Of a DNA stretch of 64,000 nucleotides, positions 2,380 to 42,959 are shown one piece after another. The notes below the pieces were generated by a model. That model saw only the letters and a program-made list of their open reading frames with translations. It did not search any database and was not told where the DNA came from. The stretch's first letter is position 1, and every line of letters starts with the position of its first letter. The stretch is from an uncultured Lysobacteraceae bacterium (GTDB taxonomy: Bacteria; Pseudomonadota; Gammaproteobacteria; Xanthomonadales; Xanthomonadaceae): positions 117,359-181,358 of the forward strand of contig CAKZGB010000008.1 in NCBI GenBank assembly GCA_936911875.1, given 5' to 3'. Both the position numbers and the translations under genes were made by a program.

Positions 2380-4287
2380 GTGAACGCTAACTCCGCACCA
2401 ATGATCGATTCCGAACTGTTTCCGCGTCTGTCGCGCATCCAAGTACCCTCTGATTTGCGCCAAGTCCCCGAGGACGAATTGCCGGAAGTCGCTGCGGAAC
2501 TGCGCCGCTATCTGATTCAGGAGGTCTCCAAAGTCGGTGGCCACTTTGGCGCGGGCCTGGGCGTTATTGAATTGACGGTTGCCTTGCATTGGCTGTTCGA
2601 CACGCCAAATGACCGCCTGGTCTGGGACGTCGGCCATCAGACCTATCCGCACAAGATCCTGACCGGGCGTCGCGATACCATCGCCACGGTCAAGCAGAAA
2701 GATGGCGTCGCACCGTTTCCGAAGCGCGAGGAATCCGAGTACGACACCTTTGGCGTCGGCCACTCCTCCACTTCGATCTCCGCAGCGCTGGGCATGGCGA
2801 TTGCGCTGCAGGCGCAGAACGATCCGCGCCATGTCGTGGCCATCATTGGCGACGGTGCGATGACGGGCGGTATGGCCTTCGAAGCGTTGGCACATGGTGG
2901 TGGTTTGGCCGATGATCCCGAACGGCAGGAACCGAACCTGCTGGTGATTCTCAACGACAACCAGATGTCGATCTCCGAGAACGTCGGTGGTGTGACCAAG
3001 ATGCTGGGCAAGCTCACGAGCTCGGTCACGCTCAACAAGATTCGTGATGGTGCCAAGCAACTGCTCGGTGACAAGCACACGGGGCCGGCCAAGGTTGTCA
3101 AACGCTGGGAAGAACATTGGAAGGGCACGTTCCTGCCTTCGACCATGTTTGAACAGATGGGCTTTCATTACACGGGACCGATTGACGGTCACGACCTGCC
3201 GGCGCTGCTGAAAGCACTGAAATTACTGAAGGATCGTAAGGGTCCGCAGGTGTTGCACCTGATGACCACCAAGGGCAAGGGCTATGAGCTCGCCGAGGGT
3301 GATCAGATCGGTTATCACGCCGTGTCGCCATTTGATCCGGCGCAAGGCATGGTGGCTCAGGTGGGTGCCGTCAAAAAGCCAACGTATACCGATGTGTTCG
3401 GCGATTGGATCTGCGACATGGCCAAGGCCGATTCCAAACTGATCGGCATCACGCCGGCGATGCGCGAGGGCTCCGGCCTGGTGCGTTTCAGCAAGGAATA
3501 TCCGCAACGCTATTACGATGTCGCGATTGCCGAGCAGCACGCGGTGACTTTGGCCGCCGGTATGGCGTGCGAAGGCATGAAGCCTGTCGTCGCGATCTAC
3601 TCGACCTTCCTGCAACGCGGCTACGATCAGCTCGTGCACGATGTCGCGATTCAGAACCTTGATGTGATGTTTGCGATTGACCGCGCCGGTGTTGTGGGCC
3701 CCGATGGGGCGACGCATGCGGGCAATCTCGATATCTCCTTCCTGCGTTGCGTGCCGAACATGGTACTGGCCGTGCCGTCGGACGAGAACGAGTGCCGTCA
3801 GTTGCTGACCACCTGTTACCGGTACGAAGGCCCTACCGCCGTGCGTTATCCGCGCGGTACCGGCCCCGGTGTTACGGTATCGGAATCGCTCGATACTTTG
3901 CCGGTTGGCAAGGGCGAGATTCGCCGTCAGGGACAGGACATTGCGCTGCTGGTATTCGGCACGCCACTCGCCGCCGCCCTGCAAGTGGCCGAAGAATGTA
4001 ACGCCACCGTCGCCAACCTGCGCTTCGCCAAGCCGTTAGATCGCGATCTGATTCTGGATCTGGCCGCCAAGCATCGCGTGCTGGTCACGATCGAAGACAA
4101 CGTCGTGGCCGGCGGTGCCGGTTCCGGTGTGGCCGAACTGCTGAGCGCACAGGGCGTCGGCACGCGCGTCGTGCATCTGGGTCTGCCCGATGCGTTCCAG
4201 CATCACGGCACGCGCGAACAGCTCCTTTCCGAAGCCGGCATCGACGCCGACGGCATCCGTAAGGCGCTGACTCCCCTGCTCGCTTAA
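2380..4287 (+). CDS. dxs: 1-deoxy-D-xylulose-5-phosphate synthase
   Basis: Full-length colinear match by eye to Dxs ([57 protein letters not shown]). Start could also be the M at 2401. Confidence 0.95.
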
Positions 4288-5165
4288 TAGGCGCAGCGTC
4301 CGGCCTGCAGTTCTTCGTAGCGGCCGGGGAACACTTCCTTGAGATAACTGCGGCTTCGGTCGTAGTCACTCTCCGCCTGCTCAGCCAGCTGCGGATTGAT
4401 CGGTTGCGGCTTGTCGATCCGGATGTAGTGAAAGCCCTGATACGGCACGCGCGCCGCGGCCAATGCGTTACGCATGTTGTCGATGTTGGCTTTGCCGTCA
4501 TCGACCAGTACGACGCGATCAAAACGGTCACGCAAATTCAGACGATCAAGCAGATGAAGCAGCATCACGCCCTTGTCCTGACCCGAAGTCATAAAGACGC
4601 CGTGGTAGTAGCTAAGGGTTGCATGTCGCGCGCCATCGGCACTCTTCCATTCCCAGATGCTGCCTTCGGAATTTCCGTTTAGGGCGCTCGGAAAGTTGTA
4701 GCCGTTGCGCTGCAGTTCGCGCTCGGTAGCGCCGCGGTAATTGCCACTGCGCGAGGTCAGAAACAGCTTGGGCTGCGAGACGGCGTTGAAGATGGCGGGC
4801 GCATCGGCTTGCGTCGGCTTCATAGTCTGCGCTTCGTAACTGAGTGCAATGTAATCGAACTTGCATTTGACCTGTTGCTCGTTCGGCAGGTCTTTCGCCT
4901 TTTGCCATTCGTACCAGTAATCGGATCCGAAAAACTGCTCGGCCGTCAGCACGGTGTCATCGATATCAAACACGAACAGGGTTCGCTGATCCTGCTTCGC
5001 TGCAAAGTCAGCGACTGCCGTTAGGTCATCGATATCGGTGACCACTGAGACCGGCATCACTGTCGAAGGCTGCACGGGCGCCGTCGGCGCTTGTTGCGGG
5101 ACGCTGACACACGCCGTCAGCATCAGACCGGCGAGAAGCACAGGCACCAATTGAGAAGGTTTCAT
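4284..5165 (-). CDS. HAD-superfamily phosphatase-like lipoprotein
   Basis: Signal peptide with lipobox LTAC ([19 protein letters not shown]) and HAD motif I ([11 protein letters not shown]). Start taken at the MKPSQ Met inside the longer ORF. Confidence 0.5.
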
Positions 5166-9650: not shown

Positions 9651-10343
9651 CTAGATCATTCGCTTGATCGACACGTTAACAAGTACACGACCACCGATGA
9701 TCATCTCTTCCGGCGCAGGAAAGTCAGGATAGGCCTTGTTTGTGCTGACAACGTAGAGCTGGTCTCTTGCTTGCAATATCTTGAACTGGGCGCCGTGACC
9801 TGTATTGATCAGGTATACCCCGTCACCATCAAAGTGGGTAATCGAAGTATCAACCCATGCGACTTCCCCGGACTCGAGCACGCCAGGAAGTGAATCCCCT
9901 CGACCCGTCATCAACTTCACGCGCCCCGGCGCCGGTAGGAATCCGACCTTCTTTCGTACTTCGTGCTCGCTGACTTCCAAGATGTTTACCACTTCTGGGA
10001 AGTCTTGATTAATAACTGGTCCACCCATGCCTGCCACCCCATCGATCTGTTCAAGTCGAACGTAGCCGTCTGGCGTTTCATTGCTTGAGACTGAATCCAG
10101 CAGCTCCGTGCCGATGCCTTCAAACACGTAAACCGGATTGATCCCTTTCACGGCAGCAAAGCGTAGAGACGCTTCGGCAGATACGCCGCGGCGCTTCCAA
10201 TTGTTTGCGCTTTGCGGCGTGGCATCGATCCAGGCTGCGATCTCCGTTTGATTTACATCGGGCTCAATCGCACGGGCCGCGTCCAGCAGCCGCTGAAAAC
10301 TTGGATGGGTAGTGTTTTCTTCCATGGGTTTAGTGTGAAACAT
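9651..10343 (-). CDS. cI: CI-like prophage repressor (HTH_XRE + S24 LexA-like peptidase)
   Basis: N-terminal HTH (QTEIAAWIDATPQSANNWKRRG). C-terminal S24 signature GDSL(PG) Ser and the downstream Lys (VSIKRM). Divergent from a cro-like gene. Confidence 0.8.
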   Translation of the reverse strand: MFHTKPMEENTTHPSFQRLLDAARAIEPDVNQTEIAAWIDATPQSANNWKRRGVSAEASLRFAAVKGINPVYVFEGIGTELLDSVSSNETPDGYVRLEQIDGVAGMGGPVINQDFPEVVNILEVSEHEVRKKVGFLPAPGRVKLMTGRGDSLPGVLESGEVAWVDTSITHFDGDGVYLINTGHGAQFKILQARDQLYVVSTNKAYPDFPAPEEMIIGGRVLVNVSIKRMI

Positions 10344-10640: not shown

Positions 10641-10842
10641 TTCTCGCAACCCACGTAATGATCCGCACGGCGGTACGTCACGGTTCTCGGCTTGTCGCGT
10701 CGAACAAACAGAATGGCAACGGTCACCGTTGGTCGCCCGAATTGGCACGCTCGTACCGGCAACAACTGCAATAACTCATTTAGGTCCACGGCTCGGCTCC
10801 ATATTGGTGTCGGGCCATCTTTCCACCCCTGGAGGGGAAAAC

Positions 10843-11238
10843 ATGGGAACAGGTCTTCCCAACAATTCCCAACTCACTTTGCAGTTGGAACCCGGTCTCT
10901 CCCATCGGCACTTGTCGCTGCGGGATTGCTTGGCTGCACAGGTCTACCAGATCGGCCACGGACGTGTCGCTGCACGCCTCGATATCGCTCCGTCCAAGTT
11001 GACGGAGAAGCTGGCAGGCTGCGATTCATCCGGCAAGGCCCGTGGGCTGAGCGTCGATGAACTCGAGCGCTACCTCGAACGCTGTGACGATGCCACTCCG
11101 ATCCTGTATCTGGTGGACAAGTTCTTGAGAGACCCGCGGGCACAGCAGCAAGACGCGCTCTCCAAGTTGGCGACCCTTGCGGAGCAGCTGCCTGCCCTGC
11201 TCGCAGCCGCCGGATACCAGGAGAAGAAGAAACGGTGA
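10843..11238 (+). CDS. hypothetical phage regulatory protein (CII-position)
   Basis: Start at ATG 10843 preceded by GGAGGGG. The longer 10495 ORF overlaps cro in another frame. Confidence 0.45.
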   Translation: MGTGLPNNSQLTLQLEPGLSHRHLSLRDCLAAQVYQIGHGRVAARLDIAPSKLTEKLAGCDSSGKARGLSVDELERYLERCDDATPILYLVDKFLRDPRAQQQDALSKLATLAEQLPALLAAAGYQEKKKR

Positions 11239-12474: not shown

Positions 12475-12807
12475 ATACCGCCCTCCCTGTGGGCTACTTG
12501 TGTGGGAGCTTCTAGCCTAACGCAGGGAGGGCAACCCCAATGAAGCACCCATCGCTATTCCGGGTCAGCATGACCGGTCGAACCCGCACCCTCTGGGCCG
12601 GCTTCGCGCTCTCCATTTATCACCAAACAACCCCGGCCCCCTATGGGGTTAAGAGCCGCGCGTGCGCACGCGTGCGGGGTTTCAGTCAGGCCCTCGGCCG
12701 CCTCGGAGCGGGCTTCGAGCCGGGGAAGGGTCCTCCTGGGGCTTGGGGGAATGAGGGTAGTTCAGACCCCGTTTTTCGTGTAGACAGCGGGGTCAAGAGT
12801 CACTGAA

Positions 12808-15213: not shown

Positions 15214-15597
15214 TGTGCAGCATGGTGTGCGGCATCTGTGCGGCATGGTGTGCGGTATCTGTGCAGCATCTTGTGCGGCATGCTGTGCGGTATCTGTGCG
15301 GCATCTGTGCGGTATGGTGTGCGGTATCAAAACCGCTGCCGGTGCGGCTGTGCAGCATGTGCGGCATCCCGCGCACCTGTGCACACGTGCGCAGGCGCGT
15401 GCGTATACCCGCGCGTATGTGCGTGTGCCCGCGCGTACGCATGCCGCACATGGTGCACAGGCCCGTCACTGCGCGGTTTCATGCTGCACAGCATGCTGCA
15501 CAACGTGCTGCACACCGGCACCTGATGCTGCACAGATCCGCAGGGTCACGCGCGCGAACCCATTTTCTTTTTTGCTGAAAGAAAAAGTGGTGGTGGG
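15214..15597. repeat. iteron array / putative phage replication origin region
   Basis: About 12 tandem copies of TGTGCRGYAT(C/GG) at 11-12-bp spacing (15214-15370), then CCCGCGCGTA x2 and (A/C)TGCTGCACA x4, then an AT-rich tract. Non-coding 400 bp directly after the primase-helicase gene. Confidence 0.6.
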
Positions 15598-16179
15598 ATG
15601 AGTGAGGAAACCTGCACCCGGAAAGAGTTCGCCGCTCGTCTCGGCTTCCGGCCTTCCTACGTCTCGCAGCTGATCAAAGACGGCCGCGTGGTGCTCACTA
15701 ACGATGGGGCGCGGGTGTGTGTGCAGGCGTCTATCGACAAGATCCGCGCAACACGTGATCCGTCCAAGATGGCTACGGTCGAACGCCACGCGGCGAAGCG
15801 TGCAACTGAAACCGAAGCGGCGCCACCTCCGCCGCCGGCGCCTCCGGATGACCCAGACAGCGAAGGGGAATACCAGTTCTCGGATGCACGCGGCAAGCGC
15901 GAGCACTATCTCGCCCTTGCGGCGAAACGGGATTACGAAATCTCAATGGGCGATCTGTTGCGGACCGCTGATGTGCGCAGGGTTCTGCTGGATGCCGGCA
16001 ACGCGCTCCGGCAGCGGTTCGAGCAACTGCCTACGATCCTGGCGCCGGCCATTGTCGAAGCGGCGCCTCGCGGTGAGTCGGCTGTGCGTGTCGTGATCGA
16101 TGATGCACTGAACCATGCCTTGGGAGAGTTCAGTCGCGCCCTTGCGAAACTCGGAGGCTCCGATGGAACAGCGGGTTGA
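15598..16179 (+). CDS. terminase small subunit (Nu1-like N-terminal HTH)
   Basis: N-terminal HTH (KEFAARLGFRPSYVSQLIKDGRV) like lambda Nu1. Immediately upstream of, and overlapping, the large terminase gene. Confidence 0.6.
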   Translation: MSEETCTRKEFAARLGFRPSYVSQLIKDGRVVLTNDGARVCVQASIDKIRATRDPSKMATVERHAAKRATETEAAPPPPPAPPDDPDSEGEYQFSDARGKREHYLALAAKRDYEISMGDLLRTADVRRVLLDAGNALRQRFEQLPTILAPAIVEAAPRGESAVRVVIDDALNHALGEFSRALAKLGGSDGTAG

Positions 16180-18076
16180 TGCATTCGTGCAAAGGCATCT
16201 GGCGCAGGCGCTGGCGCCGCGCACACGCATGTCGGTCAGTGAGTGGGCGGACCGATACATGGTGCTCAGTAGCAAGGGCTCCGCCGAGCCGGGCCAGTGG
16301 CGGACTTCTCGCAACCCGGTGCTGCAAGAGCCGATGGATGCACTGTCTGCGACCAGTAGCGCGTCCGCCGTCGTCCTCAAGTTCCCGATTCAGCTCGGCA
16401 AGACTTCGGTGGCCATCAACTGGCTGGGTTACGTCATGGGTCACGCGCCGGGCCCCTTGATGGTGTGCCTGCCCGGCGAGATTTCGATGGTGAAGTGGTC
16501 GGCGCAGAAGTTGGAGCCGGCGCTTGCGGAATCACCCGAGATGCGTCGGCCGCTGACGTCGGTTGCTTCACGTGAAACGGCCAATCAGAAGAACTTTAAG
16601 GATTTTGCGGGCGGCCAGTTGTACCTGGAACACGCGGGCTCGACGGCACGCCTCAAATCGACAACGGTGCGCTACCTGATCGTGGATGAGGTAGACGAAT
16701 TTTCGGCCGCTTTGACCAGTGGTGACGATCCACTGGCGTTACTGAAGGGCCGGATCTCGGCATATCCAGGCATCTCGAAAGAGCTGTACATCTCGACACC
16801 GACGATCAAAGAAGCCTCGCGCATCGATGAGCTGTACGACGCCGGTTCACGCGCGACGTTTCATGTTCCATGCCCAGAGTGTGGTCACGAGCAACCATTG
16901 GCATGGGATGGCCTGCACTGGAATGCTTCGCTCACGGCCGTTTGGTACGTGTGCCGGGAATGCGGCGTCTGCATCGAAGAGCATCACAAGCCGGCGATGA
17001 TCCGCAAAGGCCGATGGGTGCATGCCGACCCAGACAATCGGGTGCGCAGCTTTACCGTCAGCGGCTTGTACTACCCGATCGGTCTCGGCCCGCGCTGGTT
17101 GGATCTGGCCCGGGAGTGGATCGGCGCCCAGGGCGACCCCGCCAAACTGAAAACCTTCGTCAATGACCGTCTTGCAGAGTCGTGGGAAGACCCGGCAAAA
17201 CGAGCGATACGGCAAGACCAGCTGCGAGACCGCGCGCTACCGTATCCGTTGCGCACCGCGCCCGCCGGCGCCCTTGTCCTGACGGCAGGCGTCGACACGC
17301 AGGACGACCGCCTCGAGGTGCAGATCGTCGGCTGGGGCCGCGACTTGCGTTCTTGGACGATCGATTACGTCCGCATCGATGGCGACCCCGCCAACGAATC
17401 GACCTGGGTAGCGCTCACCGAACTGCTCAATCGCCCAATCGTGACGGACTCGGGCGCACTGCTGCAGATCCAGGCGACCGCCATCGACGCCGGCGGCCAC
17501 AGGACTGAATATGTAAAGCACTACGTGCGCAAGATGCTAATCCGCCGACCGTTGGCCATTTTTGGCGCCAAGCCCGCCAATGCGCCGATCCTTTCGCGCG
17601 GCAAGCTCGTCGACGTGACCGTCAATGGCCAGCTCGATAAGCGCGGCGTGAAGATCCACCACGTGGGCACGATTGCAGCGAAGAACTGGATCTATGGGCG
17701 GATTGGGACAGACGCCGATAAGGATCCGGCAGATCGCCTGATGCACTTTTCGGATCAGTTGCCGGAGGCGTTCTTCCCAGGCGTGGTGTCCGAAGTATGG
17801 GACCCGCGCAAGGGCCGGTTCGTCAATCGGCGCGGTGCTCGCAATGAGCCGCTCGACACCCTGGTTTACGCATATGCAGCAGCCCATCATGCCGAGCTAC
17901 GCCTGCAACATTACACTCGCGCCGACTGGGATCAGGTGGAGCAAGCCGTGCTGAGTCGTCGACTGAAACCAGGCAAGGACCCGGAAGGCTCCGCCGCCAA
18001 ACCGGCGCCCCCAAAGGTGCCCGCACCTGGTTCGAACCGTCGAGGCCTTGCTGGTGACGATTGGAGCATCCGATGA
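16163..18076 (+). CDS. terminase large subunit (lambda GpA family)
   Basis: GpA-type ATPase (FPIQLGKT Walker A-like, LIVDEVDEF Walker B). Start at ATG 16163 after GGAGG. Confidence 0.9.
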   Translation: MEQRVDAFVQRHLAQALAPRTRMSVSEWADRYMVLSSKGSAEPGQWRTSRNPVLQEPMDALSATSSASAVVLKFPIQLGKTSVAINWLGYVMGHAPGPLMVCLPGEISMVKWSAQKLEPALAESPEMRRPLTSVASRETANQKNFKDFAGGQLYLEHAGSTARLKSTTVRYLIVDEVDEFSAALTSGDDPLALLKGRISAYPGISKELYISTPTIKEASRIDELYDAGSRATFHVPCPECGHEQPLAWDGLHWNASLTAVWYVCRECGVCIEEHHKPAMIRKGRWVHADPDNRVRSFTVSGLYYPIGLGPRWLDLAREWIGAQGDPAKLKTFVNDRLAESWEDPAKRAIRQDQLRDRALPYPLRTAPAGALVLTAGVDTQDDRLEVQIVGWGRDLRSWTIDYVRIDGDPANESTWVALTELLNRPIVTDSGALLQIQATAIDAGGHRTEYVKHYVRKMLIRRPLAIFGAKPANAPILSRGKLVDVTVNGQLDKRGVKIHHVGTIAAKNWIYGRIGTDADKDPADRLMHFSDQLPEAFFPGVVSEVWDPRKGRFVNRRGARNEPLDTLVYAYAAAHHAELRLQHYTRADWDQVEQAVLSRRLKPGKDPEGSAAKPAPPKVPAPGSNRRGLAGDDWSIR

Positions 18077-18390
18077 GCGCGTCCTACCAGGAGATGCTGC
18101 GCGAGATGACAACACAAGTCATTGTGGAAACCGGCCTCACGGAGTCCATCGCACACAAGTGCGCTGTGGCCGTGATGACGGTGCTGCAGGAAAAGAAGGC
18201 TGCAAATGGTCTTCTGTATGTCAGTGGACCAAGCCGGCATCTTGATTTGCTGCAGATCGAGCAGGATTTCCGCGCCGGGCGTTCGGTGCGATTCGTCTGC
18301 CGCAAATACCGCATCTCGCGACAGCGGCTGCTAAGAGAGTATCCACAGGCGTTCCCGGGTAAAAATACCGCGCAGGTGGCGAAAAAATGA
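18073..18390 (+). CDS. Mor/C-family-like transcriptional activator
   Basis: C-terminal HTH (IEQDFRAGRSVRFVCRKYRISRQRLLREY) resembles Mu Mor/C late activators. ATGA overlap with terL. Confidence 0.5.
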   Translation: MSASYQEMLREMTTQVIVETGLTESIAHKCAVAVMTVLQEKKAANGLLYVSGPSRHLDLLQIEQDFRAGRSVRFVCRKYRISRQRLLREYPQAFPGKNTAQVAKK

Positions 18391-18530
18391 CCATGGGAAT
18401 AGTGGTCTGATTAGCGACCAACCACTACATATAGTGATCCGGGGGAATAACAAGAAAATGCTATTGCTTTCCAACTACAGACCCTCTTAGAATTCACGTA
18501 AACAAGTGGACCGGGCATTTCCTGGTCGGC

Positions 18531-18561
18531 GCAAAAGCCTCGATCCTATGGTCGAGGCTTT
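18531..18561. terminator. bidirectional hairpin terminator
   Basis: AAAGCCTCGA-tcctatgg-TCGAGGCTTT, a perfect 10-bp stem. Overlaps the stop of the antisense DUF3800 gene and follows the Mor-like gene. Confidence 0.5.
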
Positions 18562-19433
18562 GGGCTATCTGGGCTCGGATAAATTTTGAGGCCCCATCCA
18601 TGGTAGCCCTTCCCAACGCGGGACCGTCCGCCTTCGCAATAAAATTTCTTCTTCAGAGCTTCGAAAGCTCGATTCTTGATGGATTGCTCCGGGTTGAAAA
18701 CCGCAAGCCCGATTGGACGCGCAACTAGGTCCGCTAATTGCAGCCCAGAAGAAAGTGCAGATTTCGTGATGATCTTAATGTCAAACATGTATCGAATGCG
18801 GTGTCGGTTCTGACCATCACAGATGCGTCGGAATTCTAACTCCAGACCGTGGTCCATATCTTTTCCTCTCCCTTCCACAACTACATAGGTCAGCTTGTTT
18901 TGCTCCGACTTCTCACATAGAAAGTCGTAGAGCGTTTCCATGCAATGTTGGAGCCCAATTCGATACGCATTTGTCGTCTCAGCGTCCCGTGCGTTTACGC
19001 GGCGCTTGTCAATGACGCAACTAATGAGGATGAAATTGCAGCGCTTAACAATTGCACCAAGGCTCGCCATGAAGGACTCGTGTTCATCTTTTGACTTAAA
19101 AAAGTTGAACGGTGGCTTGCGCTTGCGAATCTCGGACTCGTGCAGATTTACCTGATCATGCCCAAAGTACTTAAATTTAAATCGCTGCAATCGAGGGATC
19201 ACTTCCCGGCAGTAGTGCCCCTTGTGAAAAACGCAAAAAGCAAGGCAAAAAACCGGGTATCGATCCTCGTACTTTTTTAGAGGGTGGTGCCCAGACTCGT
19301 CAACGTAAACTACGTACTGCCCAAACTCGATGCCCTCAGCTCTAGAGACGTCCGATCTTTCGGTGCTCGCTAGCTGCCTGAGGGGCAACGATAGCTGGGT
19401 CTCTCGCCGCTGACGATTCTTCCGTCGCGTCAT
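18546..19433 (-). CDS. DUF3800-family protein (moron cargo)
   Basis: Both DUF3800 signature motifs are present: DES (YVDESGHHP) near the N-terminus and QxxD (LQLADLVA) near the C-terminus. AT-rich, antisense to all flanking structural genes, with its own flanking hairpins. Confidence 0.75.
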   Translation of the reverse strand: MTRRKNRQRRETQLSLPLRQLASTERSDVSRAEGIEFGQYVVYVDESGHHPLKKYEDRYPVFCLAFCVFHKGHYCREVIPRLQRFKFKYFGHDQVNLHESEIRKRKPPFNFFKSKDEHESFMASLGAIVKRCNFILISCVIDKRRVNARDAETTNAYRIGLQHCMETLYDFLCEKSEQNKLTYVVVEGRGKDMDHGLELEFRRICDGQNRHRIRYMFDIKIITKSALSSGLQLADLVARPIGLAVFNPEQSIKNRAFEALKKKFYCEGGRSRVGKGYHGWGLKIYPSPDSPKPRP

Positions 19434-19608
19434 TCTCTTGCCCTGATGAAGTCAAATGTAAGATCAACAAATTACCCGTCAAACCTACAGTGCGCACGTT
19501 TTCAAAGAAAAAAGAAACACACCTGTTTTTTTTCTCTTAAGTTTCAATAGGTTACAAGAGGGGGTGCGTTCGTTTTCTGTGTGACTCGGACGCACCACCT
19601 CGAAAACA

Positions 19609-19866
19609 ATGGTACTCACGATGAGTACTAATTCCGACCGCCTGCAGCTCTACCTGGACGCCGAACGCAAGATTTTGGCCGGCCAGACGGTGCGATTTGG
19701 TGACCGCCTGATCACGTACGCCGAGCTCGGCGATGTGCAGGCAGAGATCACCCGCCTGCAACGTGCGGTAGCCGAGGAGCAAGCCGGCAAGAATGCTGGC
19801 GCCCGCGGTCGGTTCTCCCAGGCGGACTTTGGCGGACGCCCTTGCGGCGACTGGAACACGCAATGA
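19609..19866 (+). CDS. head-tail joining protein W-like
   Basis: LQLYLDAERKILAGQTVRFGDRLITYAELGDVQAEITRLQRAV matches the lambda gpW family pattern. Positioned before the portal gene. Confidence 0.55.
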   Translation: MVLTMSTNSDRLQLYLDAERKILAGQTVRFGDRLITYAELGDVQAEITRLQRAVAEEQAGKNAGARGRFSQADFGGRPCGDWNTQ

Positions 19867-21398
19867 CCGGTTCCGCCGCCCTGGCCTCGAAGCGGTTGAT
19901 CCGCGCGATTGCCGCCGACCAATTACACGCCGAACAGTTCTCCAAAACTCCTGAAGCCCGTACCGGGGCTCCTTTGGCTCGAGCGCACGAGGCCGTGCGT
20001 CCGTCGCGCTCGCGCCGGCTTTTTGGAGATGAGGGTTCGGGCAACCGGATTGTCTCGAGCGATGCCAAGTCGCTGCGAGATCAGGCACGCGCCTTGGAGC
20101 GCGATTACGACGTCGCGGCCAACGCGCTCAACATCCTGGTCCAGAACACCGTTGGCTCGGGTATCGATGTCATGCCGGCCCCGCGGAAGGCGGGCGGCCA
20201 AGTAAACCGCGACCTCGCGCAGCAGCTGCGCGATCTGTGGGACGAATGGTGGGACCGGCCGGAAGTTACGGGCATCCATGATTTCGGCAAGTGCCAGCAG
20301 CTCATGGCTCGCTCGGCATTTCGCGATGGCGAGGCGTTCTTTCAGCACGTCCGCGGCATGATGAGCTCGCTCGATCATCTGACGATCGTGCCGTACTCGC
20401 TGGAGATGCTCGAGGCCGACCTGGTGCCGCTGCACGCCGACGATGCCTCCAGCAATCTTTCGCAAGGCGTCTACCGCAACGCGTGGGGCCGCATCACCGG
20501 TTACCAGGTCTACAAATCGCACCCCGGCGACATGATCGGGATCCGCGAAGAAACCAAATTTGTACCTGCTGACCGCCTGCAGAGCGTGGCCTGCATCAAC
20601 CGTATTGGCCAAGTCCGCGGCTTGTCGATCTTCGCTCCGGTGATGAACCGCTTCCGCGACATCCAGGACTACGAAAACTCTGAGCGCATCGCGGCCAAGG
20701 TGGCTGCGAGCTTCTGCGCACAGATCATCAAGGATACGAGCCTGCTACAGACCCCGAGCCTTGGCGGTCTGGATGCAGCCGTTGACCGGACCATTCGCAG
20801 CTTCAATATGGTCCCGGGCCTGATCGGCGATGAACTGTTGCCGGGCGAGCGGATCGAAGTGATCGACTCCAAGCGCCCGAATCCGAACATTGAAACCTAC
20901 CTCAACTCTCAGATGCGCCGTGCGGCCGGCGGGCTTGGAACCAGCTTCAGCTCGCTGTCGATGAACTACAACGGCACCTACTCGGCCCAGCGCCAGGAGC
21001 TTGTCGAGAAGTTTGGCTACTACGCCATGCTCGGCGAGTGGTTTGTGGCGAAATTCGTCCGGCCGGTCTGGGAGGAGTTCGTAATAGCTGCTGTGCAGCG
21101 CGGGCTCGTACGCATTCCGGCCGGCTGGACGATCCGCAACATACAAGCAGCACACTTCGTCCGGCCGGCCATGCCGTGGATCGACCCGCTCAAGGAAATC
21201 CTGGCGCGTCAGCAGGCTGTCGAAGCCGGTTGGCTGGCACCGCAGCAAGCGATCTTGCAATCCGGCAACGATCCCGAGGAGGTCCTACGTCTGCGCGAGG
21301 ACTGGAAGGCGCAAGCCGGCGACCCGCCCCCAACGCAACCCAACACCGAAGGCCGCGCCGCATTCGTCGCGCTGGCCAGTGGAGATCCCAATGCCTAA
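19863..21398 (+). CDS. portal protein (lambda gpB family)
   Basis: Size and N-terminal region typical of lambda-family portals. ATGA overlap with the W gene. Confidence 0.85.
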   Translation: MTGSAALASKRLIRAIAADQLHAEQFSKTPEARTGAPLARAHEAVRPSRSRRLFGDEGSGNRIVSSDAKSLRDQARALERDYDVAANALNILVQNTVGSGIDVMPAPRKAGGQVNRDLAQQLRDLWDEWWDRPEVTGIHDFGKCQQLMARSAFRDGEAFFQHVRGMMSSLDHLTIVPYSLEMLEADLVPLHADDASSNLSQGVYRNAWGRITGYQVYKSHPGDMIGIREETKFVPADRLQSVACINRIGQVRGLSIFAPVMNRFRDIQDYENSERIAAKVAASFCAQIIKDTSLLQTPSLGGLDAAVDRTIRSFNMVPGLIGDELLPGERIEVIDSKRPNPNIETYLNSQMRRAAGGLGTSFSSLSMNYNGTYSAQRQELVEKFGYYAMLGEWFVAKFVRPVWEEFVIAAVQRGLVRIPAGWTIRNIQAAHFVRPAMPWIDPLKEILARQQAVEAGWLAPQQAILQSGNDPEEVLRLREDWKAQAGDPPPTQPNTEGRAAFVALASGDPNA

Positions 21399-27551: not shown

Positions 27552-28279
27552 AAGATGCATCCTACGTCGGCTCCGGCCGTGTGTATTTGAAGGAGCTGGG
27601 CGCCAGCACCGGTTACGTGGACATCGGCAACTGTTCGCAGCTGAACATCGCGCCCCAGACCGATTCGCAGCGTCTGGCAGACTACACCCAACCGGGCGGC
27701 GGCACTGCCAATCAATTTGAGCGACTGACGTCGGTCAACATGACCATGTCGTTCCACGATTTCAACGCCGCCAACTTGGCACTGGCGTTGCGAGGCGGCA
27801 CGACGGCCGTGACCGCGGCGACCGTCACCGACGAAGTCGTTGCCGTGATCCCTGGCACCTACTCCCCGACTGCCAAGATCCCGACCGCGATCACCTCGGT
27901 CACCAGCGCCGATGGTGTGACCACCTTCGATGTGGGTGACGATTATGAGATCCGCAGCGGCGGCATCTACATCCCGATCGGCAGCGCCATCGTGACCGGC
28001 AACGTCAAGGTCAGCTATACGCACGCCGCACAGAAGGTAGTGGAGGCATTCATTTCGGCCGCGAAGAAGTACGAGCTGCTGTTCGAAGGTCTCAACGAAG
28101 CACAGAGCGGTGCACCGGTTCGCATCCAGTGCTACCGCGTGAGCACCGGCCTGCTCGGCCAACTGGCCGCCATCAGCACCGACTATGCCGCCGGCGAAGT
28201 CTCGGGCGAGCTACTCAAGGACTCCACGCGCACCGGTGCGGGTCTGAGCCAATACCTGACCGTCACGGTGTCGGAATAA
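27548..28279 (+). CDS. major tail protein (gpV-like)
   Basis: 243 aa, position before the G/GT pair, beta-rich. Confidence 0.6.
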   Translation: MKDASYVGSGRVYLKELGASTGYVDIGNCSQLNIAPQTDSQRLADYTQPGGGTANQFERLTSVNMTMSFHDFNAANLALALRGGTTAVTAATVTDEVVAVIPGTYSPTAKIPTAITSVTSADGVTTFDVGDDYEIRSGGIYIPIGSAIVTGNVKVSYTHAAQKVVEAFISAAKKYELLFEGLNEAQSGAPVRIQCYRVSTGLLGQLAAISTDYAAGEVSGELLKDSTRTGAGLSQYLTVTVSE

Positions 28280-28283
28280 AGCC

Positions 28284-28715
28284 ATGACTGATCCGTTCGA
28301 GGTACTGACACCGGTCGAAGCGGTCCGCACCTTGACCATCCGTGGCGCCACGATTCCTGTGGCGCCGCTGGTGGCCAAGCAATTTGGACCCGTTGCCAGG
28401 CATATGCGTCCGCTGCTCGAAGGCGCATCGAACGCGCTCGACGCGTGGCGCGGCGGTTCGCTTTCCGGCGATGAGATCACGGCCGAAGAACTCTCCCTGT
28501 TGACCACGCTGGTCGAGGCCCATTGCGATGATCTGATCGCAGCGGTAGCCGCTGCAACGAATCAGCCGATCGATTGGGTTGGCAACCTTCTGCCCAACGA
28601 ATTGGCCGCGCTGGCGAGCGAGGTCTGGAGTGTCAACAAGGATTTTTTCGCCAGGACCCTGGGATCGCTCACGGCGATGGTCACCAGGGTGCCGGTGGAT
28701 CCGACGAACCACTGA
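28284..28715 (+). CDS. tail assembly chaperone G
   Basis: 143 aa acidic protein directly upstream of the tape measure gene, with a -1 frame extension. Confidence 0.6.
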   Translation: MTDPFEVLTPVEAVRTLTIRGATIPVAPLVAKQFGPVARHMRPLLEGASNALDAWRGGSLSGDEITAEELSLLTTLVEAHCDDLIAAVAAATNQPIDWVGNLLPNELAALASEVWSVNKDFFARTLGSLTAMVTRVPVDPTNH

Positions 28716-40166: not shown

Positions 40167-41033
40167 GTGCTGGATCAAAAATCAGTCGATGACCTAATCG
40201 ATGCGGATTCAGATCGCGATTTTATAGTTATTAGCGATCGCATTTCCCGCGAACTCCACTATCGACTTAGCAGAGCATTAGAGAAACAATCCTCAAATAG
40301 TCGCTGCACCGTTTTCCTCACAACGTGGGGAGGTGATCCGGATGGAGGCTATCGAATAGCGCGCTGCCTGCGCCACTACTACAAGGATGGCATTCGTCTG
40401 GTAATCCCTAGCTGGTGTAAAAGTGCCGGCACTCTCATCGCTATGGGTGCTGACGAGTTGGCCATAGGAGATCTCGGAGAGTTAGGTCCCGTAGATATTC
40501 AGGTTCTAAAGGGCTCGGAACTGGAGGAGCGTAGTAGCGGTCTTGATATTCAAGAGGCTGTCGCGGTAATCGAGAAAGAAGCAAAGGACATGTTCGTCGC
40601 CGCGTTACATGAGATTAAAGGTATGGGTCTTTCTACCAAACTTTCCGGCGAATTTGCTGCCCAAGTTACTGCTGCGCTAGTCGCACCGATCGCTTCACAG
40701 ATCGACCCGATCCGTCTCGGAGAAATGAACCGCGCTACAAGGATCGCGCATGAATATGGTGCGCGACTCAGCGGTAGATCGGGTAACCTTAAGCCTGGGG
40801 CGATTGCATATCTGATCACAAAATACCCAACTCACAGTTTTGTGATTGATCGCCTTGAAGCCAAAATACTGTTCAATCGAGTCAGCAACATGAACAGCCC
40901 CGAGACGGTTTTCTGTGACAAGAATTGGGGTATCATTGGCGAGCCAAATGATACAGTGCTTGTATTGACGCGGTCTCAGCCCAACATCGCCGCGGTTCCG
41001 ACGCAAGCAGTATCCACTACGACGAGCGCATGA
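40167..41033 (+). CDS. ClpP/SppA-fold (S49/SDH-like) serine protease
   Basis: GTG start after AAGGGGA. TTWGGDPDGG...IPSWCKSAGTLIAMGADELAIGDLGELGPVD resembles the ClpP/SppA Ser region. Low GC. Confidence 0.55.
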   Translation: MLDQKSVDDLIDADSDRDFIVISDRISRELHYRLSRALEKQSSNSRCTVFLTTWGGDPDGGYRIARCLRHYYKDGIRLVIPSWCKSAGTLIAMGADELAIGDLGELGPVDIQVLKGSELEERSSGLDIQEAVAVIEKEAKDMFVAALHEIKGMGLSTKLSGEFAAQVTAALVAPIASQIDPIRLGEMNRATRIAHEYGARLSGRSGNLKPGAIAYLITKYPTHSFVIDRLEAKILFNRVSNMNSPETVFCDKNWGIIGEPNDTVLVLTRSQPNIAAVPTQAVSTTTSA

Positions 41034-41227
41034 CCATGAAAAAAAATAAAAGACTGACGGTCATTGAGTGTAAGAATGTGACCCCTGAACAGTGCCAGGA
41101 TCAACCGTCTTCCTTGGCACAGTTTTCTGGATCGTCTGAAGATAGCTACATTCGAACTGCATTTGAAATGACTGAGCGTATGGAGAATGAATCGGAATTG
41201 ATTGCGGAACAACTTTTATTCCGCTGA
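41030..41227 (+). CDS. small acidic protein (65 aa), translationally coupled to the protease
   Basis: ATGA overlap with the protease stop. A hairpin terminator follows at 41322-41341 (GGCCGGGC agaa GCCCGGCC + T-tract). Confidence 0.4.
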   Translation: MTMKKNKRLTVIECKNVTPEQCQDQPSSLAQFSGSSEDSYIRTAFEMTERMENESELIAEQLLFR

Positions 41228-41699
41228 TCGGTTATTCCGCCGGCTTGGCCTTGGTCAGCGCGTGGTCGTTACAGACTGTCATGACTGGGGATTTTCAATC
41301 CCCTGCGCTACCAACGAGAACGGCCGGGCAGAAGCCCGGCCGTTCCGTTTGGTTTTGCTTAGCAGCGGACCAAGAACCGCCATGCCTCATATCCGTAATC
41401 GTGCGCGTCGAGGACGCGATCCGAATTACGAACACGGCGGTACCGGCAATAAATCCACCGGAATCCGCGCGGCGCAGGGTCATGAATCATCATGACAGTG
41501 CTCCTCGGAGCCAACCAAAGCTGAACAGCTCTGGGTGTGGCCTTACTCAAACTCCCGAACCCTCTGAAAGAGTTACCAATGGCACTTGTGCCGCGGGCCT
41601 CCAGGTCCTATAGTTCGGGTTGCTATCGAAGCAAGGACTCGACGCTGGCTCCTACCACGTCGAATTCATCAAAGCACCACTTTCGCGAGTGGTGCTTTT

Positions 41700-42269
41700 T
41701 TATTTCAATGCGCGCATTAACTCGGCCCTCTTCTTGTTGAAGTTCGTGTGGTAATAGTTTGCAGCTTCGTAGCTCATTCCGTACTGCTCGCTGATTGTGA
41801 TCGCGCAATCTACAACAAGCGCCCGCTCGATCGGGGCAAGTAAGCCCGCAGCGAATGTATTGGCTTGCCACTCAGGATCCTGATACCGCGGAACTGACTC
41901 TGCCGGCATTGCGAGACGGTGGTACCCCTCCCTGCAGTGCATTGCCAAGTGGCCAAACTCGTGCGCTACAGTGAATCTCGATCGACCATCAGAACGTTCA
42001 GCGCCTTCGTACGTCGAGCGACTTAACACAATTCCACTCCCATCAGGCCGCGTAAAGCCTAACGATCCCGCCATCTCATAGTCTTCATACACTTCGAGAT
42101 TAAACACTCTGCCGTCGGGTGAAATTCTGTGTTCGAGCACATCAATCAAATCAATTTGCTGATTGTCCTCGACGTAAGCTCGACGAATGCTCTGCGCCAA
42201 CAAGTAGATTTGCACCGTACTCAACGGCGGAACTACATAATTCGCATTTCCTAAAGCGAAATTGCTCAT
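41700..42269 (-). CDS. ImmA/IrrE-family zinc metallopeptidase (DUF955/COG2856-like)
   Basis: HEXXH motif VAHEFGHLAMH. Directly downstream of an XRE HTH gene. Confidence 0.7.
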   Translation of the reverse strand: MSNFALGNANYVVPPLSTVQIYLLAQSIRRAYVEDNQQIDLIDVLEHRISPDGRVFNLEVYEDYEMAGSLGFTRPDGSGIVLSRSTYEGAERSDGRSRFTVAHEFGHLAMHCREGYHRLAMPAESVPRYQDPEWQANTFAAGLLAPIERALVVDCAITISEQYGMSYEAANYYHTNFNKKRAELMRALK

Positions 42270-42271
42270 TA

Positions 42272-42637
42272 CTACTCCTTTGGCGTTGTTAGTTGATTCA
42301 AAAGTGCGGAAATGTCTGCAGACTCAAGCTGCTCGTATCGGCGTGCAAAGGCAACTGCCAGCTCGCGTGCGCGAGCGTCCGGATTAGTTCGAACAGAAAT
42401 TGAAACCTCTTTTACGGTTTCAATTGCAAGTCGATCGAGCTCTGCCGCTGTAGCATGATCAAGTTGCAGTTGTTCGGTCAACCGCGAGACAAAGTCCGGC
42501 GGCACTGGCTTGCGGCCTGTTTCCAATGCTGAGATGTACGCCACGCTGAGTCCGAGCTTCTTTGCCAGCTCCCCGAGCGTCATCCGATCACGTTCGAAGC
42601 GAACCCTTTTTAGGGCGCTACCAAACTTGTTCAACAT
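42272..42637 (-). CDS. XRE-family HTH transcriptional regulator
   Basis: HTH MTLGELAKKLGLSVAYISALETGRK. Forms an operon with the ImmA-like peptidase. Confidence 0.7.
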   Translation of the reverse strand: MLNKFGSALKRVRFERDRMTLGELAKKLGLSVAYISALETGRKPVPPDFVSRLTEQLQLDHATAAELDRLAIETVKEVSISVRTNPDARARELAVAFARRYEQLESADISALLNQLTTPKE

Positions 42638-42881
42638 GCGTATTCCTCCGTAGGGGATTGATTCAGCCTGCCCCCGTTTCGCCAGGCTGCCAACCGGCTC
42701 AAATGCCGATTTGAACCAATCCTACACCCAATGGGAGAACATTTCAACCAACGGGAAGAAAAGACGAAAACTGGCGTCGAAATTTATCCCGACTTTTATC
42801 CAGCCCGATATTTCTGAACGAAATCGCAAGCCAACAAAAAAGCCTTTCCCAATGATATCAATCACTTAGAAAAGGCTTGAT

Positions 42882-42959
<78 letters not shown>

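Follow-up and report, generated by a model that had tools for sequence, protein, structure and literature searches.

Positions 18391-19608 of the window analysed here (the whole 64-kb stretch, part of a 254-kb metagenomic bacterial contig from an uncultured Lysobacteraceae bacterium) contain a gene for a DUF3800 protein, a putative nuclease with a predicted RNase H-like fold, and, converging on its 3' end, a putative gene for a structured small RNA (sRNA) of about 66 nt. DUF3800 and this sRNA are obligately linked across proteobacteria, Verrucomicrobia, plasmids and phages, and in the window they very probably make up a two-gene cassette that was inserted as a moron among the late genes of a phage element, which, lying on a bacterial contig, is therefore a prophage. 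The first-pass annotation of this locus had proposed a single-gene DUF3800 moron, and had taken a perfect 10-bp hairpin over the stop codon of this gene for a terminator shared with an upstream Mor-like gene. The hairpin is indeed present at the position described, but the comparative analysis assigned it to the sRNA, and the single-gene unit gave way to a pair, with the convergent sRNA accompanying DUF3800 in 80/80 genome loci and 45/51 viral loci.

The comparison of the 500 nt located 3' of the DUF3800 stop codon in the 80 genome loci returned 2498 significant pairwise matches, all of them to a single element of about 60 nt starting at the stop codon. This element presents 80-95% identity between phyla, versus 50-60% for the DUF3800 proteins. 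In the window it maps to positions 18505-18570 on the plus strand, where it converges on the DUF3800 gene and is antisense to the 3' end of the latter. Its consensus reads AARUGGAYUGGG-N4-CCCGGUCGGCG, followed by a 10-bp hairpin and by UUUUCGCUUUCU, in place of which the window has UUUGGGCUAUCU on the 3' side of the hairpin. A covariance model built without the window sequence scored the window copy at 44.7 bits (E=2e-8), as the single hit in the 64 kb, and a model including the window copy scored it at 54.4 bits.

The predicted secondary structure of the sRNA comprises three helices. Helix P1 (18509-18527 on the plus strand, with arms at 18509-18515 and 18521-18527) consists of 7 bp closing a 5-nt loop, and falls within the most conserved, 5' module of the RNA. 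Helix P2 (18534-18561, also on the plus strand) is a terminator-like stem with perfect 10-bp arms (18534-18543 and 18552-18561) and an 8-nt loop that holds the DUF3800 stop codon (18546-18548), and its folding z-scores against shuffled sequence were -3.5 and -4.5. In an alignment of 71 sequences, 99.2% of the cells of the three-helix structure pair and eight pairs are compensated, a result matched by none of 500 shuffles, with slid controls reaching 36-61%. A divergent set of 44 sequences from outside model building gave 98.2% paired cells and 15 compensated pairs out of 21, in an alignment that was fitted to the covariance model and hence favours the structure. Covarying pairs in P2 amounted to seven of ten in the 71-sequence alignment and to all ten in the divergent set, while P1, with 99.8% of its cells paired, presented double changes at three pairs in the divergent set. 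U.G or G.U pairs were observed at four positions of the sRNA, in 67/71, 60/71, 42/71 and 39/71 of the sequences, the first and last of these frequencies corresponding to U.G pairs in P1 that are valid on the plus strand only. Such pairs would be A.C mismatches on the DUF3800 strand, and the structure therefore belongs to the antisense strand.

Upstream of the sRNA, a promoter-like site was identified on the plus strand at 18464-18493, with TTGCTT (18464-18469) and TAGAAT (18488-18493) separated by an 18-nt spacer. Of 70 distinct loci, 67 have the same arrangement, TTGnnn-N16-18-TAnnnT located some 9-11 nt 5' of the AARUGG sequence, with free variation of the nucleotides that separate the two hexamers. 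The terminator scan did not call the 10-bp hairpin on either strand: the sequence following it on the plus strand reads TTTGGG, and a proper U-run is lacking on both strands. At the sequence level the element thus presents a promoter, a covarying structure that holds on one strand and a 3' hairpin with a U-run, as an sRNA gene would, with the -35 hexamer and the U-run of the window copy being weak. Judged on these features, the 10-bp hairpin is part of a conserved putative sRNA gene with a promoter of its own, and not a mere terminator.

The overlap between the two genes is also apparent in the protein. The C-terminal SEKPR residues of DUF3800 are encoded by the complement of the sRNA U-run and stem, and in short DUF3800 variants, in which the open reading frame (ORF) stops earlier, the nucleotides AGCGAAAAACCCCGATG are still kept. 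The conservation of SEKPR is therefore imposed by the RNA gene. Pairing in trans of the sRNA 5' module with the 5' untranslated region or coding sequence of its own DUF3800 mRNA was considered and rejected, given mean predicted duplex energies of -27.1 kcal/mol versus -26.5 kcal/mol for shuffled sequence (mean z -0.26).

Searches against known RNA families returned no counterpart of this sRNA. None of the 4227 families of Rfam 15 matched it even at E<=10, with no DUF3800-* hit at this threshold in window positions 17500-20500 or in positions 10650-11000 of a consensus-like locus (L094), and a gathering-threshold Rfam scan of two further loci (L002 and L004) yielded only a tRNA. In the Aliikangiella locus (L004), a tRNA gene at 11073-11145 lies about 150 nt beyond the sRNA and on the same strand. 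BLASTN searches with the sRNA consensus did not return any match in the phage collection or in the E. coli genomes, and the E. coli collection appears to be devoid of the module.

The association of the sRNA with DUF3800 was assessed on two separate sets of loci. In the genome set, the sRNA was detected in 79 of the 80 loci by an anchored pattern and in the remaining one by the model, and three DUF3800 loci fetched independently also carry it, with scores of 87-89 bits. The viral set encompassed 51 viral contigs found with a DUF3800 protein profile, of which 45 carry the sRNA, in every case at the DUF3800 3' end and in the opposite orientation to this gene. Those without it correspond to one truncated locus and to five distant relatives with 22-31% identity, so that among viral relatives at 39% identity or more the sRNA is present in 45 out of 46. 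In Pseudomonas phage JBD68, which codes for a DUF3800 protein with 38% identity (gp43), the sRNA scores 50.9 bits and lies directly after the stop codon (about 28251-28316 of KY707339.1). The pair was also identified, weakly, in Paracoccus phage Pkon1, and on plasmids pSymA of S. meliloti (at the site equivalent to 359569-359632 of NC_017327.1) and p2METDI of Methylorubrum extorquens.

The protein component of the cassette is encoded on the minus strand at 18546-19433, by an ORF with an ATG start and 295 codons for amino acids that agrees with the one originally described. Its assignment to DUF3800 was borne out by a match to PF12686 (E=1.8e-15; 58.4 bits against a gathering cutoff of 21) covering profile positions 2-147 of 149, and this is the only Pfam domain in the protein. 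The two motifs on which the assignment had been based, DES (YVDESGHHP, residues 43-51) and QxxD (LQLADLVA, residues 231-238), fall in invariant columns: D45, E46, S47, E187, Q232 and D235 are invariant, and D142 nearly so, in an alignment of 120 sequences, and all of them are kept in the window protein. An AlphaFold model based on this alignment (predicted local distance difference test, pLDDT, 84.3; predicted template modelling score 0.82) shows residues 1-32 as disordered (pLDDT <50) and the remainder as an RNase H-like fold, in which acidic residues sit where the core strands end and on the C-terminal helix. The model thus gives a positive answer to the question, raised in the first-pass annotation, of whether the protein adopts an RNase H-like or nuclease fold. 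The best fold matches were RNase HII and RNase HIII rather than PIWI, at 7-12% sequence identity to RNase HII. The DUF3800 protein is hence predicted to have an RNase HII/PIWI-like fold in which the conserved acidic residues are intact, in agreement with RNase H-like predictions published for other DUF3800 proteins (PMC7736814, PMC10910872).

Homologues of this protein are numerous (>3241), the nearest non-identical one being 56% identical, and a single-sequence search retrieved 1803 representatives of 50%-identity clusters at E<=1e-3. Most are about 290 residues long and derive from Gamma-, Beta- and Alphaproteobacteria and from Verrucomicrobia. No model in PADLOC (E<=1), PHROGs or NCBIfam matched the window protein, a sequence search of the PDB found no relative of it, and a structure search of BFVD returned only another DUF3800 protein. 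One homologue, from Halomonas sp. (P0082), is labelled '3-deoxy-D-manno-octulosonic acid transferase' in one source, a label probably carried over from its neighbourhood.

The disordered N-terminal tail of the protein contains a beta-clamp-binding-type motif, QLSLPL (residues 15-20; codons at 19374-19391, minus strand). In the 120 aligned homologues QLPLF was found in 92, and QLSLF, QLSLPL or QLALF in eight more (100/120 in total). Among the 80 genome loci, 64 have a variant of the form Q[LF]xLF, QFxLPL or ELPLF, and the linker between it and the catalytic core is variable, with 21-55 residues. The tail is otherwise variable, and this short motif is its one conserved block. The general consensus for binding of the beta clamp is QLxLF (PMC4549789), and the QLSLPL hexapeptide is what attaches Hda of E. 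coli to the beta sliding clamp (PMC3836487). A sequence of the QL[SD]LF or QLxLxL type within a disordered terminal region is thus present at the sequence level, and the tail motif may be regarded as a candidate binding site for the beta sliding clamp (DnaN).

The cassette as a whole (18391-19608) stands out by its composition, as the first-pass annotation had noted. The contrast in GC content is real, although the figures of 42% against 64% then given require revision: the DUF3800 ORF has 50.0% GC and the complete span 48.4%, against 62-63% for the genes coding for the large terminase (TerL), the gpW-like adaptor and the portal, and 58.9% for the window. The DUF3800 ORF is, moreover, the lowest-GC 888-bp stretch of the window. 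The location between a terminase/Mor block and the head genes also stands. On the left, a gpA-type TerL (16115-18076, Pfam) is followed by a 109-residue ORF (18061-18390, plus strand) for which the Mor-like label is weakly supported by position and by a BLASTP match (E=0.001) to the PF08765 Mor-family protein of a viral contig (L007), with no match in a direct Pfam scan; on the right lie a gpW-like head-tail adaptor (19609-19866, plus strand; phrog_118, E=4.6e-18) and a lambda-type portal (19842-21398, Pfam).

The phage collection held no near relative of the prophage (the best match presented 65% identity over 11% of the query), and the junction was compared in 80 IMG/VR contigs encoding TerL relatives. 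None of them (0/80) has DUF3800 at the TerL-portal junction. The closest viral contig with an informative junction is L007 (TerL 60% and portal 40% identical), in which TerL, Mor (PF08765, E=1.5e-11), gpW and portal follow one another with overlapping genes and no spacer. The distance from TerL to portal is about 820 bp in this contig and some 1.2 kb longer in the window, which corresponds to the size of the low-GC block. Deviant composition, a promoter and a terminator of its own and a junction that is empty in related phages are all features of phage morons, and the earlier view of a foreign-composition moron within a late operon is upheld. The 1.2-kb cassette is an insertion into the late operon, and constitutes foreign DNA here and in almost every host examined.

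Further signals were observed within the insert. On the minus strand, a promoter-like site for DUF3800 (19455-19482; TTGACG, 16-nt spacer, TACATT) is the sole sigma-70-like site in 17900-20000, a weak indication given that shuffled sequence yields one by chance, and no conservation was found among the upstream regions of DUF3800 in homologous loci. At the right edge of the insert, just 5' of the gpW start codon, the second hairpin reported by the first reading was recovered as an inverted repeat (19558-19601) with 15-nt arms (19558-19572 and 19587-19601) that are complementary at 13 of 15 positions (87%), with a folding energy of -26 kcal/mol and a z-score of -3.4. It was not called by the terminator scan, and no U-run follows it on either strand. 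The stretch 18300-19700 is free of tandem repeats, and the inverted or direct repeats bounding the insert are only weak (e.g. 21-nt arms at 71%), which lends no support to insertion in the manner of a transposon. Upstream of the DUF3800 promoter-like site there is also a 14-nt direct repeat (19490-19503, GTGCGCACGTTTTC; 19564-19577, GTGCGTTCGTTTTC), the second copy of which falls inside the inverted repeat, and which could be a binding site for a regulator.

The genomic context of the relatives is diverse. DUF3800 has a lower GC content than its flanks in 61 of 63 loci, and in 21 of the 80 genome loci (L085-L164) it is contiguous with type I restriction-modification (R-M) genes. The order is often hsdR-hsdM-hsdS-DUF3800 with a 4-8-nt overlap with hsdS (e.g. 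L090, 4110-10828, and L086, L089, L092 and L147), an arrangement in which DUF3800 resembles R-M accessory genes such as prrC. In phages, DUF3800 is found directly downstream, and on the same strand, of a cI-type repressor with helix-turn-helix (HTH) and Peptidase_S24 domains, in JBD68, in Pkon1 and in at least six distinct viral contigs. On Methylorubrum p2METDI it adjoins parA/RHH partition genes, and the cassette is also present on megaplasmids of S. meliloti, Paraburkholderia and Novosphingobium. In Pseudomonas (L108, L126, L148, L152 and L159) it lies in a locus with lipopolysaccharide-core kinase and carbamoyltransferase genes, and in Halomonas and Aliikangiella it stands alone among housekeeping genes. 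In the JBD68 locus (positions 4312-5781 of L165, from KY707339.1), the S24 repressor gp44, the DUF3800 protein gp43 and the convergent sRNA are annotated as hypothetical or not at all, and no discussion of gp43 or gp44 was found in the JBD68 papers.

Overall, this context makes a prophage-expressed role in defence, exclusion or addiction plausible. The R-M, cI-downstream and parA neighbourhoods thus lend some support to the defence or exclusion factor that was initially proposed, though not as a single gene, and the survey of defence and mobile contexts called for at that point does return R-M loci (21/80), prophages and plasmids, together with many copies that lie among housekeeping genes.

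The sRNA also occurs on its own. Of 63 matches produced by a DNA-pattern scan of viral contigs, the model confirmed 33. Six of these 33 have DUF3800 alongside, and 26 have no DUF3800 nearby. These orphan copies keep the 26-nt 5' module and a generic terminator, and several present good promoter hexamers. They are located between TerL and portal (L218, 7642-7700), beside P22-type portals (L178, 3241-3300; L210, 758-819), near a ligase gene (L186, 516-577) and at 724-786 in L176, with identical copies in L179, L182, L194, L195, L215 and L223. Orphan sRNAs may be anti-defence antidote mimics, or RNAs with a function of their own. In one further contig (L216), a distant DUF3800 gene was found near a second, weaker copy of the sRNA: within 3291-4711, a 236-residue DUF3800 protein matching PADLOC PDC-M04A (E=1e-87) is followed by a gene for a 178-residue protein of no assigned family and by a convergent sRNA-like hit of 28 bits.

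In four viral contigs with orphan copies (L167, 278-1504; L168, 12100-13383; L193, 102-1690; and L204, with the sRNA at 12620-12685) the sRNA-like element directly adjoins a tyrosine integrase gene at the 3' end of the latter. The integrase of L167 terminates in ...FPKSEKPR, as does DUF3800, and the integrase-adjacent copies have no clear promoter. This suggests that some integrases use the sRNA gene as an attachment (att) site. As a general rule, mobilisation of the cassette by an integrase, or marking of its att site, was discarded, since only one of the 80 genome loci has an integrase within 10 kb, and the queries used for this returned none in the window.

Several known systems share features with the cassette. 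Eleven structured RNA motifs, DUF3800-I to DUF3800-XI, are known from the vicinity of DUF3800 genes, to which they may have either orientation (Weinberg et al. 2017, PMC5737381; Rfam RF02969 and RF02968), and motifs DUF3800-I and DUF3800-IX are included in Rfam (PMC11701678). Like them, the sRNA of the window is a small structured RNA beside a DUF3800 gene, possibly on the other strand and often with a 3' terminator; unlike them, it has a fixed convergent position over the stop codon and orphan copies in phages, and it has no match in Rfam 15. The comparison sets it apart from the Rfam families only, and it may equal one of the DUF3800-II to XI motifs outside Rfam. No functional follow-up of DUF3800-associated RNAs was found in the literature.

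The first-pass annotation had seen no defence role established for the DUF3800 family, a statement that is out of date, as links to type VII retrons, to Cas12a2/Cas12a3 and type VI-F loci and to PADLOC PDC-M04A have been published. In type VII retrons, a DUF3800 protein is the effector and is paired with a nucleic acid partner (Mestre et al. 2020, PMC7736814). The cassette resembles such retrons (DefenseFinder Retron_VII_2), whose RNase H2-like DUF3800 protein likewise has a non-coding nucleic acid of its own as partner, in their case within a defence context. In the window, on the other hand, no reverse transcriptase or msr/msd is present, the neighbours are TerL, the Mor-like ORF, gpW and portal, and the protein keeps the Q of QxxD that retron VII DUF3800 proteins lack (PMC7736814). 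Retron membership was not supported by PADLOC, which gave no retron hit, or by the Rfam scan of the window, which showed no retron or reverse transcriptase motif. DUF3800 is likewise an accessory of Cas12a2/Cas12a3 and type VI-F CRISPR loci (PMC10910872, PMC13594972, PMC12669027). The TPR-DUF3800 accessories share with the window protein an RNase H-fold DUF3800 domain linked to an RNA-based system, and differ from it in that the latter is a free-standing protein of 295 residues with a clamp-type tail, and the window has no TPR, cas genes or CRISPR array that would place it in this group. Component A of PADLOC PDC-M04 is also a DUF3800 protein flagged as a defence candidate, but neither the window protein nor three of its relatives matched PDC-M04A, and the window has no second protein gene, so that the cassette falls outside this system.

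The pairing of a protein with a small RNA also evokes toxin-antitoxin systems. In type I pairs such as txpA/RatA, RalR/RalA and SymE/SymR, the antitoxin is a 3'-overlapping antisense RNA or the toxin is a nuclease; ToxIN exemplifies type III systems, and the pseudo-ToxI of phage TE is an orphan antidote-like RNA in a phage. The cassette resembles RNA-antitoxin systems in encoding a protein and, separately, a small RNA that is cis-antisense to the 3' end of its mRNA, and in having orphan RNAs in phages. It departs from them in its RNase H-like protein of 250-295 residues, in place of a small membrane peptide, in its single structured RNA, in place of a processed repeat array, and in a conservation that exceeds antisense need. 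With regard to type I systems, the cis-antisense 3' overlap is seen in the sequence, and the protein is a predicted soluble enzyme of 295 residues and not a peptide; with regard to type III (ToxIN-like) systems, the RNA is single-copy, convergent and downstream of the gene, although inhibition of the protein by the RNA, as in such systems, may still be how the cassette operates. The position of DUF3800 behind the repressor and on its strand in JBD68, Pkon1 and the viral contigs mentioned above recalls rexAB, which in lambda is co-transcribed with cI in the lysogen. In the window, by contrast, the cassette lies in the late region with a promoter-like site of its own, and the immunity region with the S24 repressor is some 8 kb to the left, at roughly 9651-10343. 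Lastly, RNase H2 is recruited to the PCNA sliding clamp via a PIP box, while the clamp motif of DUF3800 is N-terminal and of the bacterial QLxLF/QLSLPL type, and its gene, unlike those of RNase HII/H2, is accessory, mobile and low in GC.

The reading that we tentatively favour, with somewhat less than even confidence, is that of an RNA-restrained nuclease acting as a toxin or abortive-infection module. The sRNA would restrain the DUF3800 nuclease either as a cis-antisense RNA to the 3' end of its mRNA, through convergent transcription and duplex formation, or, as we hold more likely, by binding the DUF3800 protein directly. Direct recognition of the protein is favoured because the near-invariant 5' module goes beyond what antisense pairing alone explains: a cis-antisense pair is complementary whatever its sequence, and the invariance of the module therefore requires another constraint. 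It is also paralleled by the nucleic acid partner of retron VII (PMC7736814) and by the eleven DUF3800-linked RNA motifs (PMC5737381). If the RNA were short-lived, its loss or displacement by a competitor, upon shutoff of host transcription by a phage or upon loss of the element, would free the nuclease, which, tethered to DnaN clamps, might cut replication intermediates such as RNA-DNA hybrids, its likely substrate, or primers. The outcome would be abortive infection or post-segregational killing. As the sRNA lies on the late-operon strand, late read-through would supply antidote sequence in abundance while the prophage itself goes through its lytic cycle, and would counteract transcription of DUF3800, and one may speculate from the sequence that the degenerate U-tract of the window copy lets transcription run on into gpW. 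The orphan sRNAs of phages would act as antidote mimics countering the system. The linkage is asymmetric, in that the protein is never found without the RNA (the truncated locus and the five distant relatives aside) and the RNA, above all in phages, often occurs alone. This pattern agrees with a toxin-antidote logic to which phages respond with counter-measures.

Several observations weigh against this reading. Toxicity, sRNA transcription and sRNA-protein binding are inferred from sequence. Of all copies, that of the window has diverged furthest, in the protein as well as in the RNA, with sRNA scores of 44.7-54 bits versus a typical 80-90 and a degenerate U-tract, and its -35 hexamer matches at three of six positions and is not called by a generic promoter scan. 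The clamp motif belongs to the short linear motifs, and the N-terminal tail is missing altogether from 16 of the 80 genome loci, as it is from shorter phage and plasmid relatives. Many genomic copies are solitary among housekeeping genes, outside defence islands, and PADLOC has no model for this DUF3800 clade. The cassette fits neither the classical architecture of type I systems, with small peptide toxins, nor that of type III systems, with repeat arrays upstream of the toxin. Furthermore, a strain-specific DUF3800 gene of Legionella was scored as essential alongside antitoxins in transposon sequencing (Tn-seq; bioRxiv 10.1101/2020.10.01.323287), the opposite of what is expected of a toxin; this could be an insertion-cold-spot artefact, or the gene could belong to a different clade.

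Among other explanations, it is unlikely, if worth serious consideration, that DUF3800 is an RNA-guided or RNA-activated nuclease, with the sRNA as cofactor or guide in an active ribonucleoprotein that, in the style of a minimal Argonaute or omega-RNA system, hits a conserved nucleic acid. The near invariance of the 26-nt 5' module across phyla, orphans included, would fit a protein interface or a fixed target; no pairing of this module with the remainder of the DUF3800 mRNA is predicted (mean z -0.26, as above), and the occurrence of eleven unrelated RNA motifs beside DUF3800 in either orientation (PMC5737381) speaks for a protein-RNA partnership over antisense control. However, a guide identical in all hosts implies a target common to them all, of which none was identified; with a core of about 250 residues, the protein is small and has no MID- or PAZ-like domains to anchor a guide; its best fold matches are RNase HII and HIII, not PIWI; and the orphan sRNAs of phages become harder to explain. 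A related scheme, to which we give little weight, makes the pair a minimal ribonucleoprotein immune effector recruited by the clamp to replication forks, with the RNA as guide, sensor or allosteric partner of a PIWI/RNase H-like nuclease and with the orphan RNAs of phages subverting it; such an effector would represent an RNA-dependent defence of a new class, separate from CRISPR, Argonaute, retrons and the known types of toxin-antitoxin system. That the cassette is instead a pure addiction module, a selfish toxin-antidote pair stabilising a prophage, plasmid or island with no role against other phages, seems distinctly unlikely. The parA/RHH neighbours on p2METDI, the carriage on megaplasmids of S. 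meliloti, Paraburkholderia and Novosphingobium, the solitary low-GC insertions among housekeeping genes and the scoring of the Legionella gene as essential together with antitoxin genes would all agree with it, but translational coupling to hsdS in type I R-M loci and a rexAB-like spot behind cI are typical of defence genes, and the orphan sRNAs carried by phage contigs of virulent appearance point to an arms race. In any case, addiction is compatible with abortive infection.

The roles of the two components might also be reversed or unrelated, the sRNA being an independent regulator or an integrase attachment-site RNA that DUF3800 targets, processes or hitch-hikes on, or else a harmful RNA against which DUF3800 protects. 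We regard this as improbable. Most viral sRNA copies in the pattern scan have no DUF3800 nearby, the four integrase-adjacent elements and the FPKSEKPR terminus of one integrase are in line with it, and so is the essentiality of the Legionella gene by Tn-seq. Linkage seen from the protein side (80/80, and 45/46 at 39% identity or more) argues nonetheless for a functional pair, integrase adjacency was seen in one of the 80 genome loci only, and the integrase-adjacent copies have no recognisable promoter. Hardest to sustain is the single-gene reading, a DUF3800 defence moron in which the flanking hairpins are plain intrinsic terminators and the Mor-like gene shares one of them. Its premises of an ORF, hairpins and a foreign base composition all hold, but between phyla the hairpin together with the adjoining 40 nt shows a conservation of 80-95%, and this region has a promoter on the opposite strand, G.U pairs that are valid on one strand only, and covariation. 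Such sequence conservation is not expected of a terminator, and a proper U-run is lacking on both strands.

With regard to precedent, the links of DUF3800 to defence and its association with structured RNAs are already known; apparently undescribed are this RNA motif, the constant overlap of the two genes, the tail with its clamp-binding-type motif and the occurrence of orphan RNAs in phages. DUF3800 is a large family with no assigned function that recurs in retrons, CRISPR loci and defence candidates, and its link to eleven orphan RNA motifs has stood unexplained since 2017. The locus provides a compact and tractable example, with one protein and one 66-nt RNA in about 1.1 kb and in a fixed arrangement, the RNA being conserved from Alphaproteobacteria to Verrucomicrobia. 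Besides S. meliloti pSymA, the cassette is carried by JBD68, a cultured phage of P. aeruginosa PAO1, which offers a convenient model for experiments, as RNA-seq of the PAO1(JBD68) lysogen is already published (PMC12952977). The favoured reading predicts that the RNA is an antidote, that the nuclease is tethered to the clamp and that the orphan RNAs of phages counter the system; if true, it would explain the DUF3800-RNA association and add an RNA-regulated nuclease module to the defence and addiction systems linked to prophages, plasmids and R-M loci. For annotation, the locus illustrates that an apparent terminator over a stop codon may actually be a gene.

Two further features were observed elsewhere in the window. 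A gap of about 400 bp between a primase/helicase gene and a terS-like gene holds several tandem repeat arrays (15214-15514), including a 23-nt unit repeated five times at 15214-15328 and others with 9-, 20- and 12-nt units, which might be iterons, or a packaging or regulatory site. A second low-GC block (40167-42958) follows the gene for a gpJ-like tail protein and contains a weak ClpP/NfeD-like ORF, a pair of Peptidase_M78 (ImmA/IrrE-like) and HTH_31 genes and a tRNA-Pro gene (42882-42958, minus strand); it is probably cargo, located at the right end of the prophage beside its integration site.

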